Shown: piece after piece, positions 3,255 to 11,786 of the stretch
Layout of the letters: each line of letters starts with the position of its first letter
How positions within the stretch are numbered: the first letter of the stretch is position 1
Origin: a virus
Taxonomy: Duplodnaviria > Heunggongvirae > Uroviricota > Caudoviricetes
Virus record (IMG/VR): IMGVR_UViG_2513237361_000005
Length of the DNA stretch: 29,840 nt
Strand: one strand, 5' to 3'
Position numbers and translations under genes: made by a program
Notes under the pieces: model-generated
The model's database searches: none
What the model saw: the letters and a program-made list of their open reading frames with translations, nothing else
What the model was told of the DNA's origin: nothing

Positions 3255-3526
3255 GTATTCGTATTGAAATTGGCGAACGTTATGTCGTTACCAGTGACAG
3301 CTTTCAGTTTATTCTCCACGAGAAAAAGAGAGCTGAAAGCGGTAAAAACGCCGGTCAGGAATGGCTGGCGGTGGTTGGTTATTACCCGAAATTAAGCCAG
3401 CTCGTTTCCGGCCTGATGCATCACGATATTCTGACCGGAAGCGCAAAGTCTTTTGCTGATTTAAACGCGCAGGTTGAGCAACTCAGCAAGCGTTGTTCAG
3501 AGGCTTTTGGCTCATATGGCCGTTAA
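3251..3526 (+). CDS. hypothetical early protein (P2 orf83 position)
   Basis: 91-aa ORF; ATGA overlap with the upstream gene; its end overlaps the start of gene A. Confidence 0.55.
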   Translation: MSIRIEIGERYVVTSDSFQFILHEKKRAESGKNAGQEWLAVVGYYPKLSQLVSGLMHHDILTGSAKSFADLNAQVEQLSKRCSEAFGSYGR

Positions 3527-5801
3527 AGCCTCCGGGCGTTTTGTCCCTCCGTCAGCATTTGCCGCAGGCACCGGTAAGGCGTTTACCGGTGCTTATGCAT
3601 GGAACGCGCCACGCGAGGCCGTCGGGCGCGAAAGACCCCTTACACGTGACGAGATGCGTCAGGTGCAAGGTGTTTTATCCACGATTAACCGCCTGCCTTA
3701 CTTTTTGCGCTCGCTGTTTACTTCACGCTATGACTACATCCGGCGCAATAAAAGCCCGGTGCACGGGTTTTATTTCCTCACATCCACTTTTCAGCGTCGT
3801 TTATGGCCGCGCATTGAGCGTGTGAATCAGCGCCATGAAATGAACACCGACGCGTCGTTGCTGTTTCTGGCAGAGCGTGACCACTATGCGCGCCTGCCGG
3901 GAATGAATGACAAGGAGCTGAAAAAGTTTGCCGCCCGTATCTCATCACAGCTTTTCATGATGTATGAGGAACTCTGCGATGCCTGGGTGGATGCGCATGG
4001 CGAAAAAGAATCGCTGTTTACGGATGAGGCGCAGGCACATCTGTATGGTCATGTTGCTGGCGCTGCACGTGCTTTCAATATTTCCCCTCTCTACTGGAAA
4101 AAATACCGTAAAGGGCAGATGACCACGAGGCAGGCATATTCTGCCATTGCCCGTCTGTTTAACGATGAGTGGTGGATTAGTCAGCTTAAAGGCCAGCGTA
4201 TGCGCTGGCATGAGGCGTTACTGATTGCTGTCGGGGAGGTCAATAAAGACCGTTCTCCTTATGCCAGTAAACATGCCATTCGTGATGTGCGTGCGCGCCG
4301 CCAGGCAAATCTGGAGTTTCTTAAATCGTGTGACCTTGAAAACAGGGAAACCGGCGAGCGCATCGACCTTATCAGTAAGGTGATGGGCAGTATTTCTAAT
4401 CCTGAAATTCGCCGGATGGAGCTGATGAACACCATTGCCGGTATTGAGCGTTACGCCGCTGCAGAGGGTGATGTGGGGATGTTTATCACGCTGACCGCGC
4501 CGTCAAAGTATCACCCGACACGTCAGGTCGGAAAAGGCGAAAGTAAAACCGTGCAGCTTAATCACGGCTGGAACGATGAGGCATTTAATCCAAAGGATGC
4601 GCAGCGTTATCTCTGCCGTATCTGGAGCCTGATGCGCACGGCATTCAAGGATAATGATTTACAGGTCTACGGTTTGCGTGTCGTCGAGCCACACCACGAC
4701 GGAACGCCGCACTGGCATATGATGCTTTTTTGTAATCCACGCCAGCGTAACCAGATTATCGAAATCATGCGTCGCTATGCGCTCAAAGAGGATGGCGACG
4801 AAAGAGGAGCCGCGCGAAACCGTTTTCAGGCAAAACATCTTAACCGGGGCGGTGCTGCGGGGTATATCGCGAAATACATCTCAAAAAATATCGACGGCTA
4901 TGCACTGGATGGGCTGCTCGATAACGATACCGGCAGGCCGCTGAAAGATACTGCCGCGGCTGTTACCGCATGGGCGTCAACGTGGCGTATTCCGCAATTT
5001 AAAACGGTTGGCCTGCCGACAATGGGGGCTTACCGTGAACTACGCAAATTGCCTCGCGGCGTCAGCATTGCTGATGAGTTTGACGAGCGCGTCGAGGCTG
5101 CACGCGCCGCCGCAGACAGTGGTGATTTTGCGCTGTATATCAGCGCGCAGGGCGGGGCAAATGTCCCGCGCGATTGTCAGACTGTCAGGGTCGCCCGTAG
5201 TCCGTCGGATGACGTTAACGAGTACGAGGAAGAAGTCGAGAGAGTGGTCGGCATTTACGCGCCGCATCTCGGCGCGCGTCATATTCATATCACCAGAACC
5301 ACGGACTGGCGCATTGTGCCGAAAGTGCCGGTCGTTGAGCCTTTGACTTTAAAAAGCGGCATCGCCGCGCCTCGGAGTCCTGTCAATAACTGTGGAAAGC
5401 TCACCGGTGGTGATACTTCGTTACCGGCTCCCACACCTTCTGAACACGCCGCAGCAGTGCTTAATCTGGTTGATGATGGTGTTATCGAATGGAATGACCC
5501 GGAGGTCGTGAGGGCGCTCAGGGGCGCATTAAAACACGACCTGAGAACACCAAACCGTCAGCAAAGAAACGGAAGCCCGTTAAAACCACATGAAATTGCA
5601 CCATCGGCCAGACTGACCCGGTCGGAAAGAATGCAAATTACCCGTATCCGCGTTGACCTTGCTCAGAACGGTATCAGGCCGCAGCGATGGGAGCTTGAGG
5701 CGCTGGCGCGTGGCGCGACCGTAAATTATGACGGGAAAAAATTCACGTATCCGGTCGCTGATGAGTGGCCGGGATTCTCAACAGTAATGGAGTGGAGATG
5801 A
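3516..5801 (+). CDS. A: replication initiation endonuclease gpA (rolling-circle Rep, HUH class)
   Basis: Starting at ATG 3516 gives 761 aa, the P2 gpA length. Contains an HUH-type motif (PHWHMMLF) and a tyrosine pair (AGYIAKYISK) typical of rolling-circle initiators. Confidence 0.9.
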   Translation: MAVKASGRFVPPSAFAAGTGKAFTGAYAWNAPREAVGRERPLTRDEMRQVQGVLSTINRLPYFLRSLFTSRYDYIRRNKSPVHGFYFLTSTFQRRLWPRIERVNQRHEMNTDASLLFLAERDHYARLPGMNDKELKKFAARISSQLFMMYEELCDAWVDAHGEKESLFTDEAQAHLYGHVAGAARAFNISPLYWKKYRKGQMTTRQAYSAIARLFNDEWWISQLKGQRMRWHEALLIAVGEVNKDRSPYASKHAIRDVRARRQANLEFLKSCDLENRETGERIDLISKVMGSISNPEIRRMELMNTIAGIERYAAAEGDVGMFITLTAPSKYHPTRQVGKGESKTVQLNHGWNDEAFNPKDAQRYLCRIWSLMRTAFKDNDLQVYGLRVVEPHHDGTPHWHMMLFCNPRQRNQIIEIMRRYALKEDGDERGAARNRFQAKHLNRGGAAGYIAKYISKNIDGYALDGLLDNDTGRPLKDTAAAVTAWASTWRIPQFKTVGLPTMGAYRELRKLPRGVSIADEFDERVEAARAAADSGDFALYISAQGGANVPRDCQTVRVARSPSDDVNEYEEEVERVVGIYAPHLGARHIHITRTTDWRIVPKVPVVEPLTLKSGIAAPRSPVNNCGKLTGGDTSLPAPTPSEHAAAVLNLVDDGVIEWNDPEVVRALRGALKHDLRTPNRQQRNGSPLKPHEIAPSARLTRSERMQITRIRVDLAQNGIRPQRWELEALARGATVNYDGKKFTYPVADEWPGFSTVMEWR

Positions 5802-6253
5802 TGGCAAAAATTCACGAGGTAAAGCTGCACGCAAAATATTTCGACCTTGTGCTGGAAGGAAAGAAACGCGCAGAGTTTCGGAAAAATGACCGTAATTATG
5901 AGCACGGGGACACGTTGATTTTGCATGAATGGGTGCAGGGTGTGTATACGGGGCGAAAGGTTGAAGCCCGGATAACAGATGTTACTGACCTGTCAGACTG
6001 GCTGGAAGATTATGTCTTGCTAAGTATTGAGCTGCTTAATACAGGCGCATATGAGATTGTGAACTGGAAAGAACTTAGTGAGCGTGGTCTGGTATTCAGA
6101 ATTAATCATGAAATTATGCATCAGCTCGGCCTTGCTGTTATGTATGAACCAGAGACGGGGATGTCTGGCGGGGCAATGGTTGCCACGGATGGAGCATGGA
6201 ACTATTCAGATGAACAGATGGAGCGTGCACAGCAAAACGGGTGGCTTGGATAA
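5801..6253 (+). CDS. DUF3850/ASCH-like (PUA-fold) protein with an unassigned C-terminal extension
   Basis: Start overlaps the gpA stop. N-terminal about 80 aa (MAKIHEVKLHAKYFDLVLEGKKRAEFRKNDRNYEHGDTLILHEW...) resembles the small DUF3850/ASCH-like proteins common in phages (recognition by eye, unverified). Confidence 0.5.
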   Translation: MAKIHEVKLHAKYFDLVLEGKKRAEFRKNDRNYEHGDTLILHEWVQGVYTGRKVEARITDVTDLSDWLEDYVLLSIELLNTGAYEIVNWKELSERGLVFRINHEIMHQLGLAVMYEPETGMSGGAMVATDGAWNYSDEQMERAQQNGWLG

Positions 6254-6459
6254 TGCACAGAATACCAGGCGAGATACCGCACCATAAAACTAAAAATATC
6301 AAGCTGATGGCTATTGTTCAGCGTTTACAGCGGATTATGGTCAACGAAAATATGACGCCCGATGAGCTGGTCGGGTGTGCCGAAATAGTCCGGGATAATT
6401 ACGGGCGGTTTAATCATATCGGTCAATCAAGAGTTACGCCACCACCACGCAGACGATAG
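6253..6459 (+). CDS. small hypothetical protein
   Basis: 68-aa ORF whose ATG overlaps the upstream TAA (TAATG); Pro/Arg-rich C-terminus; no recognisable motif. Confidence 0.4.
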   Translation: MHRIPGEIPHHKTKNIKLMAIVQRLQRIMVNENMTPDELVGCAEIVRDNYGRFNHIGQSRVTPPPRRR

Positions 6460-6682
6460 AGAACGCCGCCAGTCGTGAAACTTGTTTTCAGGGCTGGCGG
6501 GGTTGAACAACGAGCGAAGCGAGGCGTTAGTTGACAGACATATTTTTACTGCGTTGGTGCCGGTTTTTGACGGTTGAAAGGAGTTAGGTTGGAGAGCCAA
6601 CAACTTACAAATATTCAAAAGTAAGCATCCTGTTGCTAACATGAGGTCGATTTTTTATGTGGATGATGCAAAAAGGATAGCT

Positions 6683-7414
6683 ATGGATACTATAATCGCT
6701 TTTCTATCACTCGCTTTTTTCGTTGCTTTCTTCATCGGGTTAATCAAGCCATCACTGGTGCGAATGCCAAACCGCAAACGTGCAAGTGCGGTTTATCTCG
6801 GAGGAGGTTTTGTATTGAGCATAATTGGTTCAATACTCTATCCAACAGAAAAAAGCCAGCCAGTTGCTAAAACTGAAACATCAACCGTTGCAGAACACAA
6901 AGTCCAAAAAACATTCGAATATGGTGAAAAAACACTCAAGGAATATCGGAACGAGTCAAAGAAAACACGACACGATATTGTGAATAGTTACATTGATTTT
7001 AAGGAAGTTCCAGCCACCGCGTCAGATGCGTTTTATGCCTGCATGAGTGAGTATACATTTACCAAAGATGATGAGTTGAAACTCGGTGATGTTCTTGGGT
7101 GGTGCTTTAATGATTATGAAAATGACCCGAATTCACTAAACAATAAAATCAATCTTGATACATTTCAGAGTAATTTTAGTGGTTGGGATGGTTCTTATCG
7201 TCCATTGGAAAAACTAATTAAAGATAATATGAACGATGATTCATCTTATAAACATGTGTCAACGGTATATCATTTGGTTTTGAATAAAGACCCGTACGCT
7301 ATTGTGAAAACTACGTTTCGCGGTACTAATGCTTATGGTGGAGTGGTTAAGCAGACTATAGCTGCGCGCGTCGACATACGAACGGGAGAGGTTGTATCAA
7401 TATTAGATAATTGA
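6683..7414 (+). CDS. cargo membrane protein: two N-terminal transmembrane helices plus about 170-aa soluble domain of unknown function
   Basis: ATG 6683 with AGGA 5 nt upstream; hydrophobic helices TIIAFLSLAFFVAFFIGLI and AVYLGGGFVLSIIGSILY separated by a basic loop (RMPNRKRAS); coding sequence is strongly AT-rich compared with flanking phage genes. Confidence 0.6.
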   Translation: MDTIIAFLSLAFFVAFFIGLIKPSLVRMPNRKRASAVYLGGGFVLSIIGSILYPTEKSQPVAKTETSTVAEHKVQKTFEYGEKTLKEYRNESKKTRHDIVNSYIDFKEVPATASDAFYACMSEYTFTKDDELKLGDVLGWCFNDYENDPNSLNNKINLDTFQSNFSGWDGSYRPLEKLIKDNMNDDSSYKHVSTVYHLVLNKDPYAIVKTTFRGTNAYGGVVKQTIAARVDIRTGEVVSILDN

Positions 7415-7423
7415 TTATAAGCA

Positions 7424-7452
7424 ATGAGTGCTGAATGGTTTTCTGCACTCAT
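7424..7452 (+). other. intergenic hairpin between the two cargo genes (8-bp stem ATGAGTGC/GCACTCAT, 13-nt loop)
   Basis: Perfect inverted repeat read from the sequence; no following U-tract, so more likely a processing or attenuation element than a terminator. Confidence 0.3.
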
Positions 7453-7479
7453 ATAAATATGAATTTTTTAGGTGATGTA

Positions 7480-7992
7480 ATGGAATATCAACTGGATTTA
7501 CAAGAGAATGCTATTGATAGTTTTAATGAAGCTTTAGCAAAGTATGAGTTAGGGCAGAGAGGAGAATTGCGGCAATATAAATTTGCTATCTTGCATTTGT
7601 CACATTTTCTTGAGCTGGTGTTGAAGTTATATATTGTTACAGTAGATGAAAATTTACTGTATTCCGATTGCTATAAACAAATAGCTACAAGAGCAAAGCA
7701 AGAATCAATCAGTCTTTTAGACGCATATAATAAAATTATCGAGGATGGCGTTGATTTAGGAAGGTTCATTGAAGGGAAATCTAAGCCATATACGATAACC
7801 TTAGATCAGGCACTAAACTTTGCTAAGTGTGAGAAATGCGGCATAACTGGGGTTGATTTTGTAGATATTGATTTTTGTAATGATATAGCTTGGATAAAGA
7901 ATTTAAGAAATGATATTGAGCATTATCAATTCAGACTTACTCCTAAAGATGCGCGCTTGTGTATTGGACGCCTCGTCCGGGGGGGTAGCTGA
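7480..7992 (+). CDS. HEPN-like protein segment; probable N-terminal part of a single frameshifted gene spanning 7480-8416
   Basis: ATG 7480 with AGGTGA 5 nt upstream; helical-looking sequence with R-N-D-I-E-H (Rx4H) at 7906-7923, the HEPN signature; the frame terminates immediately after a G7 tract (7979-7985). Confidence 0.55.
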   Translation: MEYQLDLQENAIDSFNEALAKYELGQRGELRQYKFAILHLSHFLELVLKLYIVTVDENLLYSDCYKQIATRAKQESISLLDAYNKIIEDGVDLGRFIEGKSKPYTITLDQALNFAKCEKCGITGVDFVDIDFCNDIAWIKNLRNDIEHYQFRLTPKDARLCIGRLVRGGS

Positions 7993-8416
7993 GTTTATTG
8001 ATATCTTCGATCTTTTTAATCTTGAAGATGAAGTCGGTGCAGATAACTTACAGATATTTCAAACTTTAGCTGATGAATACTCTCATCGGCTCTCTGAAGC
8101 CAAGAAAGAAGTTGAAGAAAGAGAGGCTGAAGCTTTTTATGGGGTTAGGCATAAATTTTATGAATTGGTCGATTGGAAAGTTTATGAATGTCCTGAGTGT
8201 TCTAACGACACAATGATTCCCTCTGATGAGTCTTCTACGGGTTACAAATGCACTTTTTGTCAGAATGAAGATAGTGATGATATTGATGTTGCTTGCGATT
8301 GTTGTGGTGCGCAGGCTCCCAGCAGCGAAATGAGCATTTGGCCAATGGATGATGGTGATGTTGAGTATCGTTGTTACTACTGTTCAGGGCAGTATCAGGC
8401 AGATAAAGACTTTTAA
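7910..8416 (+). CDS. Cys-rich zinc-ribbon segment; probable C-terminal part of the same frameshifted gene
   Basis: Overlaps the upstream ORF by 83 nt in another frame with no convincing Shine-Dalgarno before ATG 7910; contains CPEC-x17-CTFC and CDCC-x23-CYYC Cys pairs (two zinc-ribbon-like modules); AT-rich. Confidence 0.5.
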   Translation: MILSIINSDLLLKMRACVLDASSGGVAEFIDIFDLFNLEDEVGADNLQIFQTLADEYSHRLSEAKKEVEEREAEAFYGVRHKFYELVDWKVYECPECSNDTMIPSDESSTGYKCTFCQNEDSDDIDVACDCCGAQAPSSEMSIWPMDDGDVEYRCYYCSGQYQADKDF

Positions 8417-8498
8417 TTTGCTGTTAACTGCTAGGGATGAAGTTAAAAATCATAGGACTCATCGTTAATTTATACTCAAATTTGTTTGATTTCTGCAT

Positions 8499-8522
8499 TG
8501 CATACAAAAGATGCATTTTTTT
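8499..8522 (+). terminator. weak candidate terminator for the cargo genes (TGCAT/ATGCA stem followed by T7)
   Basis: 5-bp stem with 7-nt loop followed by a run of seven T; the short stem makes this tentative. Confidence 0.25.
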
Positions 8523-8810: not shown

Positions 8811-9845
8811 TCAGCCGTTGTCAGTGTCCAGTGAGTAGTTTTTAAAGCGGATGACCTCCTGACCGAGCCAGCCGTTTATCTCGCGGATCCTGTCCTGTAA
8901 CGGGATAAGCTCATTGCGGACAAAGACCTTTGCCACTTTCTCAATATCACCCAGCGACCCGACGTTCTCCGGCTTGCCCCCCATCAACTGAAAGGGGATG
9001 CGGTGCGCGTCCAGCAGGTCAGCGGCGCTGGCTTTTTTGATATTAAAAAAATCGTCCTTTGTTGCCACTTCACTGAGGGGGATAATTTTAATGCCGTCGG
9101 CTTTCCCCTGTGGGGCATAGAGAAACAGATTTTTAAAGTTGTTGCGGCCTTTTGACTTAACCATGTTTTCGCGAAGCATTTCGATATCGTTGCGATCCTG
9201 CACGGCATCAGTGACGTACATGATATATCCGGCATGAGCACCGTTTTCGTAATACTTGCGGCGAAACAGCGTGGCCGACTCATTCAGCCAGGCAGAGTTA
9301 AGGGCGCTGAGATATTCCGGCAGGCCGTACAGCTCCTGATTAATATCCGGCTCCAGCAGGTGAAACACGGAGCCGGGCGCGAAGGCTGTCGGCTCGTTGA
9401 AGGACGGCACCCACCAGTAAACATCCTCTTCCACACCACGGCGGGTATATTTTGCCGGTGAGGTTTCCAGTCTGATGACCTTGCCGGTGGTGCTGTAACG
9501 CTTTTCCAGAAACGCATTACCGAACACCAGAAAATCCAGCACAAAGCGGCTGAAATCCTGCTGGGAAAGCCACGGATGCGGGATAAATGTCGAGGCCAGA
9601 ATATTACGTTTGACGTAAATCGGGGAGCTGTGATGCACGGCAGCACGCAGGCTTTTTGCCAGACCGGTAAAGCTGACCGGTGGCTCATACCATCTGCCGT
9701 TACTGATGCACTCGACGTAATCCAGAATGTCACGGCGATCGAGTACCGGCACCGGCTCACCAAAGGTGAATGCCTCCATTTTCGGGGCGCTGGCGGTCAT
9801 TGTTTTTGCCGCTGGTCGCGGTGTTTTCCCTTTTTTCTTGCTCAT
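8811..9845 (-). CDS. Q: portal protein gpQ
   Basis: 344 aa, the P2 Q length; adjacent to and co-oriented with the terminase ATPase gene; cos nearby. Confidence 0.9.
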   Translation of the reverse strand: MSKKKGKTPRPAAKTMTASAPKMEAFTFGEPVPVLDRRDILDYVECISNGRWYEPPVSFTGLAKSLRAAVHHSSPIYVKRNILASTFIPHPWLSQQDFSRFVLDFLVFGNAFLEKRYSTTGKVIRLETSPAKYTRRGVEEDVYWWVPSFNEPTAFAPGSVFHLLEPDINQELYGLPEYLSALNSAWLNESATLFRRKYYENGAHAGYIMYVTDAVQDRNDIEMLRENMVKSKGRNNFKNLFLYAPQGKADGIKIIPLSEVATKDDFFNIKKASAADLLDAHRIPFQLMGGKPENVGSLGDIEKVAKVFVRNELIPLQDRIREINGWLGQEVIRFKNYSLDTDNG

Positions 9846-11616
9846 CAGTAAAACTCCAGAATGGTGGATGTCAGCGGAGTGCTGATACCGGCGGTGAGTG
9901 GCTCATTTAACAGGGCGTGCATGGTCGCCCAGGCGAGGTCGGCGTGGCTGGCTTCCTCGCTGCGGCTGGCCTCATAGGTGGCGCTGCGTCCGCTGCTGGT
10001 CATGGTCTTGCGGATAGCCATAAACGAGCTGGTGATGTCGGTGGCGCTGACGTCATATTCCAGACAGCCACGGCGGATGACGTCTTTTGCCTTGAGCACC
10101 ATTGCGGTTTTCATTTCCGGCGTGTAGCGGATGTCGCGCGCGGCGGGATAGAACGAGCGCACGAGCTGGAACACGCCGACACCGAGGCCGGTGGCATCAA
10201 TACCGATGTATTCGACGTTGTATTTTTCGGTGAGTTTGCGGATGGATTCAGCCTGAGTGGCAAAGTCCATGCCTTTCCACTGGTGACGCTCAAGTATTCT
10301 GAATTTGCCACCGGCCACCACCGGCGGTGCCAGCACCACGCATCCGGCGCTGTCGCCACGGTGTGACGGGTCGTAACCAATCCATACCGGGCGGGAGCCG
10401 AACGGATTCGCGGCAAACGGCGCATAGTCTTCCCATTCTTCCAGCGTGTCGACCATGCAGCGTTGCAGCTCCTCGAACGGGAACACCGATGCCTTGTCGT
10501 CAACAAATTCACACATGAACAGGTTTTTAAAATCGTCGGCGCTGTTTTCGCGTTTGAGCTGCTCAATGTCGAACAACGTGCAGCCACCTTTCAGGGCGTC
10601 CTCAATGGTGACAATCTGCCGCCACTGGCCGTCCGCACAGAGAAGACCACCGGCAAGGGCGTTATGACTGACGTCGATTTCCACGCGTTCGGCGGCGCTG
10701 GCGCGTCCCCGGTTAAACAGTTCACCCGACCAGAACGAGTAGGCGTCGTGCGCCAGCGTGGACGGGGTGGAGAAATAGGTCGAGCGCAGGTGACTCTGTG
10801 AGGCCATACCTGATGCCACCTTACGCAGTACCTGAAAATTCGGGATCCAGAAAATCTCGTCGACGTACAGGTCGCCGTTATGGCTCTGCGCGGTGTTGGA
10901 GTTGGTGCCGAGAAAAATCAGTTTTGCGCCGTTATTGCCCAGGACAATCGGGTCACCGGTCAGGTCAACGTCAACCAGACGGGCAAAGGCGATGATGTAT
11001 TCACGGAACACATACGCCTGCGTTTTACTGGCCGACAGAAAAATCTGGTTATGACCGGTTTTCAGGGCACGCAGCAGCGCCTCGCGGGAAAAATAAAACG
11101 TTGCGCCAATCTGGCGGGATTTCAGGATATCGCGGATGCGGTGCTCAAGCCCGGCGCGATACCAGTGCAACTGATATTCGAAAGACTGCTCAAAGAAAAT
11201 CTGCTCCAGCTTTTCGATGGCCTCGTCACTGAAAAATTCTTTTTCGGTTTGCGCCGCCCGCCTTTGTTGCGGTTAGCGACGTTCGGATTAAGGTCTGCCT
11301 CGTTGCCGGTCTGGCTGTAGCGATTTACCCGTGCCAGTCGTTCAATCTGGCGTCCCAGCAGGTCAATTTCCTTGAAGTCACCGCCGGTTTTCTGCGGTTT
11401 GATGATGAGCTGGGTCAGCCGCGCTTCCAGGCTCATTTCGACACGGCTGATGGGGGCAACGCTGTCCCAGCCGTCGCGCTGTTTCCAGCTCTGCACCGTC
11501 GGGCGTTTCATCTGCAACATGGCGGCAATCTGCGGCACGGAAAATCCCTGCCAGTACAGCAGCGCCGCCTGACGACGCGGGTCGTGTAAAAGAGTGGTGT
11601 CTGTGGTGATGGTCAT
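9845..11616 (-). pseudogene. P: terminase ATPase (large) subunit gpP, interrupted by a 1-nt frameshift
   Basis: N-terminal 5' part (ATG 11616, GAGG Shine-Dalgarno) is in one frame, open to 11122; the remainder is in another frame, open from 11272 to 9845. Total span is 1772 nt (not divisible by 3); one extra nucleotide would give 590 aa, the P2 gpP length as I recall it. Confidence 0.8.
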
Positions 11617-11786
11617 GAATACCTCGCCGTGATGAATACACGGCAAGGCTACTGAGTCGCGCCCCGCGATTCGCTAAGGTGCTGTTGTGTCAGTGATAAG
11701 CCATCCGGGACTGATGGCGGAGGATGCGCATCGTCGGGAAACTGATGCCGACATGTGACTCCTCTAATCACTATTCAGGACTCCTG

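Follow-up and report, generated by a model that had tools for sequence, protein, structure and literature searches.

The orf91-type genes behind gpA in a P2-like prophage and the hairpin element that follows them

We have analyzed a stretch of viral DNA of 29,840 nucleotides (nt), the IMG/VR record IMGVR_UViG_2513237361_000005, the whole of which is termed the window. It is a P2-like (Peduovirus) prophage, with an integrase at the left end followed by an early operon that includes the replication gene gpA. After the early operon comes an AT-rich segment, then the portal gene gpQ (8811-9845, - strand), and then the late genes. Our subject is the DNA directly behind gpA, where two short open reading frames (ORFs), ORF1 and ORF2, are followed by a conserved 69-nt element containing a hairpin. 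The features of this region are as follows, with lengths in amino acids (aa).

3474..5801, + strand: gpA replication nickase gene, annotated in relatives as 'replication endonuclease' or gpA; ORF1 is coupled to its stop codon
5798..6253, + strand: ORF1, 151 aa, full-length orf91-type protein with a DUF3850/ASCH-like and a DUF7415 domain (phrog_1812)
5810..6028, + strand: DUF3850/ASCH-like (PUA-like) domain, ORF1 aa 5-77 (PF12961, PF04266, PDB 3IUW)
6056..6247, + strand: DUF7415 domain, ORF1 roughly aa 87-150 (PF24187, structure prediction, Foldseek)
6253..6459, + strand: ORF2, 68 aa, basic (phrog_11386, E = 1.6e-38)
6419..6436, + strand: indel-rich patch within the 3' part of ORF2 (protein matches and DNA breakpoints)
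6462..6530, + strand: conserved 69-nt element closing the ORF1-ORF2 block (breakpoints, covariation, folding z-score, covariance model)
6641..8416, + strand: AT-rich cargo to the right of the element, comprising two genes of which the second is frameshifted; it lies outside the ORF1-ORF2 pair

Two small genes coupled to gpA

The ATG of ORF1 (5798-5800) overlaps the TGA stop codon of gpA (5799-5801) within the sequence ATGA (5798-5801), and the ATG of ORF2 (6253-6255) shares an A with the TAA stop codon of ORF1 (6251-6253) within the sequence TAATG. Both overlaps had been noted in the original prediction and are read directly in the DNA. A second in-frame ATG of ORF1 lies at 5801, giving a product of 150 aa, or 151 aa from the first ATG, and ORF2 ends with a TAG codon at 6457-6459. 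Shine-Dalgarno-like sequences are found upstream of the two starts, GGAG (5789-5797) for ORF1 and GGTGG (6240-6244) for ORF2. In a divergent lineage the gap between gpA and ORF1 is 5-12 nt with GAGGAG upstream, and the overlap of ORF1 and ORF2 is kept as ATGA. A terminator scan found no terminator-like site on the + strand from gpA to 6459. Both junctions are consistent with translation coupled behind gpA, as judged from the arrangement of the codons.

The coding status of the two ORFs is seen in their patterns of substitution. In the annotated frame, the ratio of nonsynonymous to synonymous substitution rates (dN/dS) is 0.31 for ORF1 (39 distinct close alleles) and 0.30 for ORF2 (35 alleles). 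The two shifted frames give values of 0.68-1.30 across both ORFs, those for ORF2 being 0.68 and 1.19. A control on the 3' end of gpA was set aside, since the sequences were probably misaligned by indels. Because dN/dS is low only in the annotated frames, we conclude that ORF1 and ORF2 are real genes and not chance frames, and the substitution pattern shows both to be under purifying selection.

ORF1 matches phrog_1812 over its full length (E = 1.5e-82), and comprises two domains. The N-terminal domain matches Pfam DUF3850 (PF12961) over aa 5-77 with E = 8e-18 and 64.8 bits (cut-off 22.9), far more strongly than it matches the generic ASCH family (PF04266; E = 2e-10, 41.8 bits, cut-off 21.2). 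The ASCH octapeptide GxKxxExR is present as G21-K22-K23-R24-A25-E26-F27-R28, with K23 and R28 invariant across a ten-sequence alignment. The chain of PDB 3IUW, described as an 'activating signal cointegrator', aligns end to end with aa 4-79 (E = 1e-13), and this full-length sequence match implies a PUA-like barrel. The DUF3850/ASCH-like character ascribed to ORF1 in the original prediction is upheld by these matches. 3IUW is a stand-alone chain of 83 residues, to which ORF1 adds the DUF7415 domain. AlphaFold2 (AF2) mis-modelled the N-terminal domain as helices, with a predicted local distance difference test score (pLDDT) of 45-68 and no alignment depth over this domain.

The C-terminal 70 aa had been regarded as unassigned, which does not hold, for this region matches Pfam DUF7415 (PF24187) over aa 87-129 (E = 2e-14, 54 bits, cut-off 27). 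The core motif RINxEILHPLGLA...DG.W.Y is present, and PF24187 is matched by all 61 aligned relatives. With these 61 sequences AF2 predicts a helix-helix-strand-strand-helix arrangement at a pLDDT of 93-97; an earlier model of the C-terminal domain by itself, made from 16 sequences, had a pLDDT of 59 and was not used. Foldseek comparison of the model with BFVD found matches to other DUF7415 phage proteins only, whose predicted structures superpose at 1.3-2.8 Å, and the comparison with solved structures in the PDB found no relative. A word-indexed homologue search with the C-terminal domain returned near-identical fragments only. The sequence H104-E105-x-x-H108 in this domain was considered as the HExxH motif of a zincin metalloprotease and rejected. 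It is invariant among close relatives only, the first histidine is unconserved over the 61 diverse DUF7415 proteins, and there is no match to a zincin fold.

An exhaustive profile search found 4,572 proteins at E ≤ 0.001, each matching one or other domain. DUF7415 occurs also in phages unrelated to P2, including Vibrio phage nt-1, Morganella phage MP1 and a Streptomyces phage. The majority of DUF7415 proteins are short or without a further recognized domain. Where there is a fusion partner it is a dATP/dGTP pyrophosphohydrolase (three cases), an Rv2179c-like 3'-5' exoribonuclease, a thymidylate kinase, DUF551 or a ClpX-type zinc finger. A domain search found no nuclease or other effector domain in either ORF1 or ORF2. 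In the literature searched we found no mention of DUF7415, and DUF3850 comes up there only as a domain enriched in phages and fused to ParB-CTPase folds (PMC12704722). ORF1 shares with those fusions a DUF3850 domain that is enriched in phages and prophages, but unlike them has neither a ParB-CTPase fold nor a parA neighbor, its partner being DUF7415.

Proteins 97-100% identical to ORF1 are found in many genomes under the annotation 'DUF3850 domain-containing protein', and RefSeq labels the pair with that name and 'hypothetical protein'. The named relative is Orf91 of P2 (AAD03307), which has the same position, the same ATGA coupling to gpA and the same DUF3850 domain. Its first 224 nt are 97.8% identical to ORF1. 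The similarity stops at window position 6021, which is the boundary between DUF3850 and DUF7415, and P2 Orf91 then runs into an unrelated tail of 35 aa beside tin/old, with no DUF7415 domain, ORF2 or hairpin element. Within P2 (AF063097, 4001-4330) the first 75 residues of Orf91 correspond to DUF3850 and the remainder was created by the junction with the tin/old cargo. By this alignment, the window encodes the complete form of a two-domain protein, and the Orf91 of reference P2 is a truncated chimera of it. Wphi has the same locus, with DNA 97% identical over the whole 662 nt, in which the annotation divides ORF1 into gp91 (the DUF3850 part) and gp92 (the DUF7415 part, matching profile positions 107-150) and leaves the ORF2 homologue unannotated.

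ORF2 encodes a protein with an isoelectric point of 10.8, in which a core (aa 1-52) and a C-terminal motif PPPRR(R/P) are conserved while the linker between them (aa 53-61) varies. The PPPRR of the motif is preserved through synonymous codon changes. Its homologues form 128 clusters at 90% identity with 17 invariant residues, and span the Enterobacteriaceae (Escherichia, Salmonella, Citrobacter, Enterobacter and Buttiauxella). No match was found in Pfam, NCBIfam or PADLOC, and a profile search against PDB sequences was also empty. Protein matches often end at aa 57-61 and the tail varies in length; in some loci DNA breakpoints fall at 6419-6472, within the indel-rich 3' region and onward.

Distribution of the pair among P2-like phages

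In complete E. coli genomes the 3' end of gpA is found at 1,937 places, and DNA of the pair at 392 of them, nearly complete in 345. Among phage records with gpA, 28 of 89 have the pair, and the 61 that lack it include isolated phages. The pair is thus present in about 20% of E. coli P2-like prophages and about 30% of sequenced P2-type phages. In the relatives without it, gpA is directly followed by methyltransferases, reverse transcriptases or other genes. The 662-nt region is 94-98% identical in 23 phage records, including Wphi, P22H4, P24A7b, S164, 9W and several Yersinia pestis P2-like phages; L-413C has kept ORF1 and lost ORF2. Because the pair is absent from most relatives, it is shown by these counts to be dispensable for P2-like phages and is not a universal replication factor. 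The original prediction had named conserved P2-like accessory genes as one possibility, of which the accessory part stands and the word conserved overstates the distribution. The possibility it named as contrary, a pair universally conserved with a known replication role, is at odds with the same absence.

The loci of IMG/VR reveal how the pair is related to its neighbors. A full-length ORF1 follows gpA at 76 loci, and ORF2 comes next in 72 of these. In a divergent lineage among them, identity to the window is about 75% for gpA, about 80% for gpQ, about 55% for ORF1 and about 60% for ORF2. The pair has diverged in step with gpA and gpQ, which argues for long co-descent with the phage backbone. 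Between the pair and gpQ we distinguish about 40 unrelated clusters of DNA, of up to 4.9 kb, and two of the 76 loci are near-empty, with only 150-200 nt between pair and gpQ. Over the 76 loci we found no co-inheritance of the pair with one particular cargo system. PADLOC gave a chance-level match for ORF1 (E = 0.022) and none for ORF2. Since about 40 unrelated cargos and near-empty sites follow the same pair, it is not the leading part of any cargo cassette, and its independence of the cargo on its right is shown by this comparison of loci. The suggestion that these were the leading genes of a cargo cassette is therefore set aside. The GC content is intermediate, as had been supposed, at 0.46-0.48 over 5800-6400 against 0.52-0.60 in gpA and 0.31-0.40 in the cargo (6600-8500).

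One divergent locus (L088, 6827-8066), where gpA is 61% identical, has four genes after gpA that encode a DUF7415 protein, a 116-aa protein, an ASCH protein carrying the motif GEKTEEYR, and an ORF2 homologue. The occurrence of DUF7415, ASCH and ORF2 as separate neighboring genes suggests a link by fusion or fission that ties the three parts together functionally. From the comparison of loci, ORF2 is the most persistent gene after gpA in P2-like lineages.

Some further arrangements were observed. At another locus a DUF7415 protein lies upstream of gpA instead. Three proteins have the N-terminus of Cox joined directly to the end of DUF3850 or to DUF7415, one of them on 16 contigs. Such joins would correspond to deletions running from cox to orf91, by which some degraded prophages have lost their entire replication operon, and we attribute these and other odd fusions to deletions or to joins made in assembly. 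Where relatives lack ORF1, their match to gpA stops 13-30 nt (more in some) short of the end of our 998-nt gpA query, which itself ends just before the stop codon (window about 5770-5797). This early loss of similarity indicates that the cargo junction can fall inside the last codons of gpA.

The 69-nt element between the pair and the cargo

The hairpin of the element (6463-6503) starts 3 nt after the last stop codon of the operon, and comprises 14 base pairs with a loop at 6480-6486. It is followed by a tail conserved in sequence, TTGAACAACGAGC...GCGAGGCGTTAG. In nearly all related loci, homology to the window ends at 6530-6534, both in the group with about 97% identity and in that with about 69%. 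In the divergent lineage the element is 78-84% identical, above the identity of the ORF1 and ORF2 genes.

Compensatory changes are found in seven of the 14 hairpin pairs, and 97.3% of the cells in the alignment are paired. None of 500 shuffles reaches this value, and slid controls give 19-57%. The folding z-score is -3.65. A covariance model of the element scores 116.9 bits on the + strand and 23 bits on the - strand. As U-G and G-U pairs are frequent and the model is far better on the + strand, we place the structure on that strand. A terminator on the - strand was rejected, since the U-G and G-U pairs would become A-C mismatches and the score is 23 bits against 117. An alternative pairing of the 5' AACGCC with the 3' GGCGTT was also rejected; its 5' side varies, its 3' side is fixed and there is no covariation. 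No U-tract follows the hairpin, the 3' flank GGUUGAACAACG having only two U, and the terminator scan made no call here. There is no credible match to the element in Rfam, where the sole match, at 20.3 bits against a gathering score of 60, is by chance.

In E. coli the element is found at 561 places, spread over 522 genomes, and thus exceeds the pair with its 392 places. An element pattern drew 117 loci from IMG/VR, all of which are P2-like. Upstream of the element there is ORF1 in 33, ORF2 without ORF1 in 30 and other small genes in 54, among them DinI-like and Tum-like genes, a Fic-like gene and a homologue of a 257-aa protein encoded in the window's cargo. The slot between gpA and the element is thus variable, with alternative occupants of which ORF1-ORF2 is the commonest. 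The element is doubled as direct copies in eight loci, six of which bracket the homologue of the 257-aa protein. It is absent from P2 itself and from the most distant relatives, and we found no mention of it in two papers on the hotspot. On the positions of the breakpoints, the element splits the hotspot between gpA and gpQ into a left slot co-oriented with the early operon and a right slot, extending to cos and gpQ, that holds the cargo. By the same alignments it is the fixed left edge, a sharp junction shared by dozens of swappable cargos. ORF2 with the element looks like the more persistent unit, to judge from the loci compared.

Remnants or diverged copies of ORF2 were observed directly upstream of the element in prophages without ORF1 (L095/L096, 2277-2700; L097, 5293-5536; and two further loci), one being internal to cargo and one on a plasmid record of 66.8 kb. 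A perfect TTGACA hexamer (6531-6536, + strand) starts at the first base past the element, at the onset of the window-specific cargo, and no convincing -10 partner was found for it.

Like terminators, 3' stabilizing hairpins and attC sites, the element is a stable, conserved and strand-specific hairpin after the last stop codon of an operon. It resembles integron attC in lying where gene cassettes differ, and in the occasional second direct copy after a single gene. The attC core has the consensus GTTRRRY, and GTTGAAC at the 3' base of the element fits it. However, unlike attC the element is present once or at most twice per phage and not once per cassette, there is no integron integrase, and the 5' base lacks a complementary RYYYAAC core beyond AAC. 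An integron-like array was rejected because there are only one or two copies per phage.

The first cargo gene (6641-7414, + strand) encodes the membrane-anchored 257-aa protein, which has an N-terminal hydrophobic segment, belongs to phrog_3403 and has no match in Pfam or PADLOC. In loci where gpA is only about 40% identical, a homologue is found on the left side of the element, behind a protein whose C-terminal part is DinI-like. From its varied positions this gene behaves like a mobile one-gene cassette. The second cargo gene (7435-8416, + strand) is a candidate defence gene, a homologue of the PADLOC candidate PDC-S64 (phrog_20824) with a product of 326 aa at three other loci. Here it is split into ORFs of 185 and 168 aa by one extra G in a run of seven (7973-7979). 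The gene may be a pseudogene, the tract may be phase-variable, or the extra G may be an error in sequencing the homopolymer. The gene of the terminase large subunit, gpP (9845-11646, - strand), is also split, into ORFs of 441 and 174 aa, by a 1-nt deletion near 11231 relative to three close relatives. The two frameshifts together suggest either a decaying prophage or assembly errors.

Interpretation of the block

We consider it probable that ORF1 and ORF2 are orf91-type distal genes of the early (replication) operon of P2-like phages, forming an early-lytic module that is dispensable, deals with nucleic acids or nucleotides and is ended by the hairpin element. Because they are coupled to gpA, the two proteins would be made in lytic development and not in the lysogen. 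The ASCH barrel of ORF1 may bind or process RNA, single-stranded DNA or a nucleotide, possibly modified, and DUF7415 would be an accessory module tied to phage nucleotide or nucleic acid metabolism. ORF2 would be made with ORF1 and may be its partner. Acting early and without being essential, the pair would modulate the host or nucleic acids. A plausible specific role is counter-defence, which would fit the early, optional and variable character of the pair. Most likely the hairpin on the + strand would give the early transcript a structured 3' end or an insulator, and the element may supply a conserved sequence at which cargo is swapped by recombination.

Several points weigh against this interpretation. 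The timing of expression and any activity of the pair are deduced from the sequence. The ASCH superfamily includes modified-base sensors of defence nucleases and a 5-hydroxymethylcytosine (5hmC) glycosylase (PMC12191111; bioRxiv 10.64898/2026.02.25.707755), so that the domain by itself is compatible with a defensive role. Since the interval between gpA and the element is variable, ORF1 has something of the character of exchangeable cargo. Loci with ORF2 and no ORF1 are about as numerous as those with both, which makes an obligate ORF1-ORF2 complex less likely. One preprint (10.1101/2025.08.28.672839) calls P2 orf91 'an essential protein', and gives no evidence. Lastly, because there is no U-tract the hairpin is not a canonical intrinsic terminator.

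The pair might instead be anti-phage cargo, either the first genes of a defence cassette or a stand-alone exclusion system whose ASCH domain senses modified incoming DNA. It lies within the gpA-gpQ interval that Rousset et al. treat as a defence hotspot and in which they list 'DUF3850/ASCH + hypothetical...' arrangements. ASCH/PUA domains serve in defence elsewhere as modification sensors or in the 5hmC glycosylase, the GC content of the pair is intermediate, and the slot to the left of the element is variable. Yet about 40 unrelated cargos and two near-empty sites are found behind the same pair, whose divergence has kept pace with that of gpA and gpQ. It is coupled in translation to a gene of lytic replication, and no promoter-like signal stands out from the background. 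PADLOC gives no match, nuclease and other effector domains are lacking, and phages unrelated to P2 also carry DUF7415. The coupling to gpA, the independence of cargo, the lack of a PADLOC match and the occurrence of DUF7415 in other phages all disfavor a defence role, which we regard as unlikely. A dedicated cofactor of gpA-driven rolling-circle replication, required for phage growth, would be consistent with the immediate coupling to gpA, the gene order conserved in divergent lineages, the preprint's description of orf91 as essential and the nucleotide-metabolism enzymes fused to DUF7415. But about 80% of E. coli P2-like prophages and 61 of 89 P2-type phage records do without the pair, relatives have unrelated genes directly after gpA, and P2 lacks ORF2 and has of ORF1 the DUF3850 half alone, joined to an unrelated tail. 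Such a requirement is therefore quite improbable.

Two narrower alternatives concern the individual genes. YqfB-type ASCH amidohydrolases, which deacetylate N4-acetylcytidine (ac4C), belong to the same superfamily, and ORF1 could be such an enzyme of nucleoside salvage. The superfamily is common, ORF1 has a weak in-register similarity to the YqfB structures 1TE7 and 9KYF that is marginal (E about 1), and the lysine and arginine of the octapeptide are conserved. The catalytic residues of YqfB are Lys21, Thr24, Arg26 and Glu74, with Thr24 the nucleophile (PMC9599836). However, Thr24 aligns with Glu26 of ORF1, within a canonical GxKxxExR, and an equivalent of Glu74 is not assignable. The YqfB-type catalytic set was rejected on this comparison, and we consider the activity very improbable in ORF1. 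ORF2, for its part, is short, has no relatives in Pfam, NCBIfam or the PDB and is unannotated in some phage records, as might be expected of a chance reading frame over the 5' flank of the conserved element. Against this, its 128 clusters in several genera share 17 invariant residues, dN/dS is 0.30 in frame, the overlapping start is kept in divergent lineages and PPPRR is kept by synonymous changes. Moreover, an ORF2 homologue follows gpA even where the element is absent, and we give almost no credence to a chance frame.

The interpretation as distal early genes ended by a hairpin leaves room for a larger role of the element. It could be a functional device, often accompanied by ORF2, that divides the gpA-gpQ hotspot between a slot expressed early and a slot for cargo. 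Such a device would insulate the cargo from lytic transcription and be a preferred site of crossover, and ORF1 and/or ORF2 could bind its RNA. We offer this as a speculative proposal that we think rather unlikely to be correct.

What this analysis adds is the two-domain architecture of ORF1, the persistence of ORF2, the placement of the pair outside the defence cargo, and an element that bounds the cargo and is absent from Rfam. ORF1 and ORF2 are ordinary, already catalogued small genes that make good, if unremarkable, candidates for an early accessory or counter-defence role, and more interest attaches to the element. New anti-phage systems are widely drawn from the gpA-gpQ interval of P2-like phages, and published locus tables place 'DUF3850/ASCH + hypothetical...' alongside the cargo genes. 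The distinction between backbone and cargo prevents genes of the orf91 type from being mis-assigned to defence systems. If the element guides recombination or insulates transcription it would help explain the fast swapping of defence cassettes, and if its reading as a partitioning device were true, an undescribed cis element would lie behind the rapid exchange of phage-borne defence systems.

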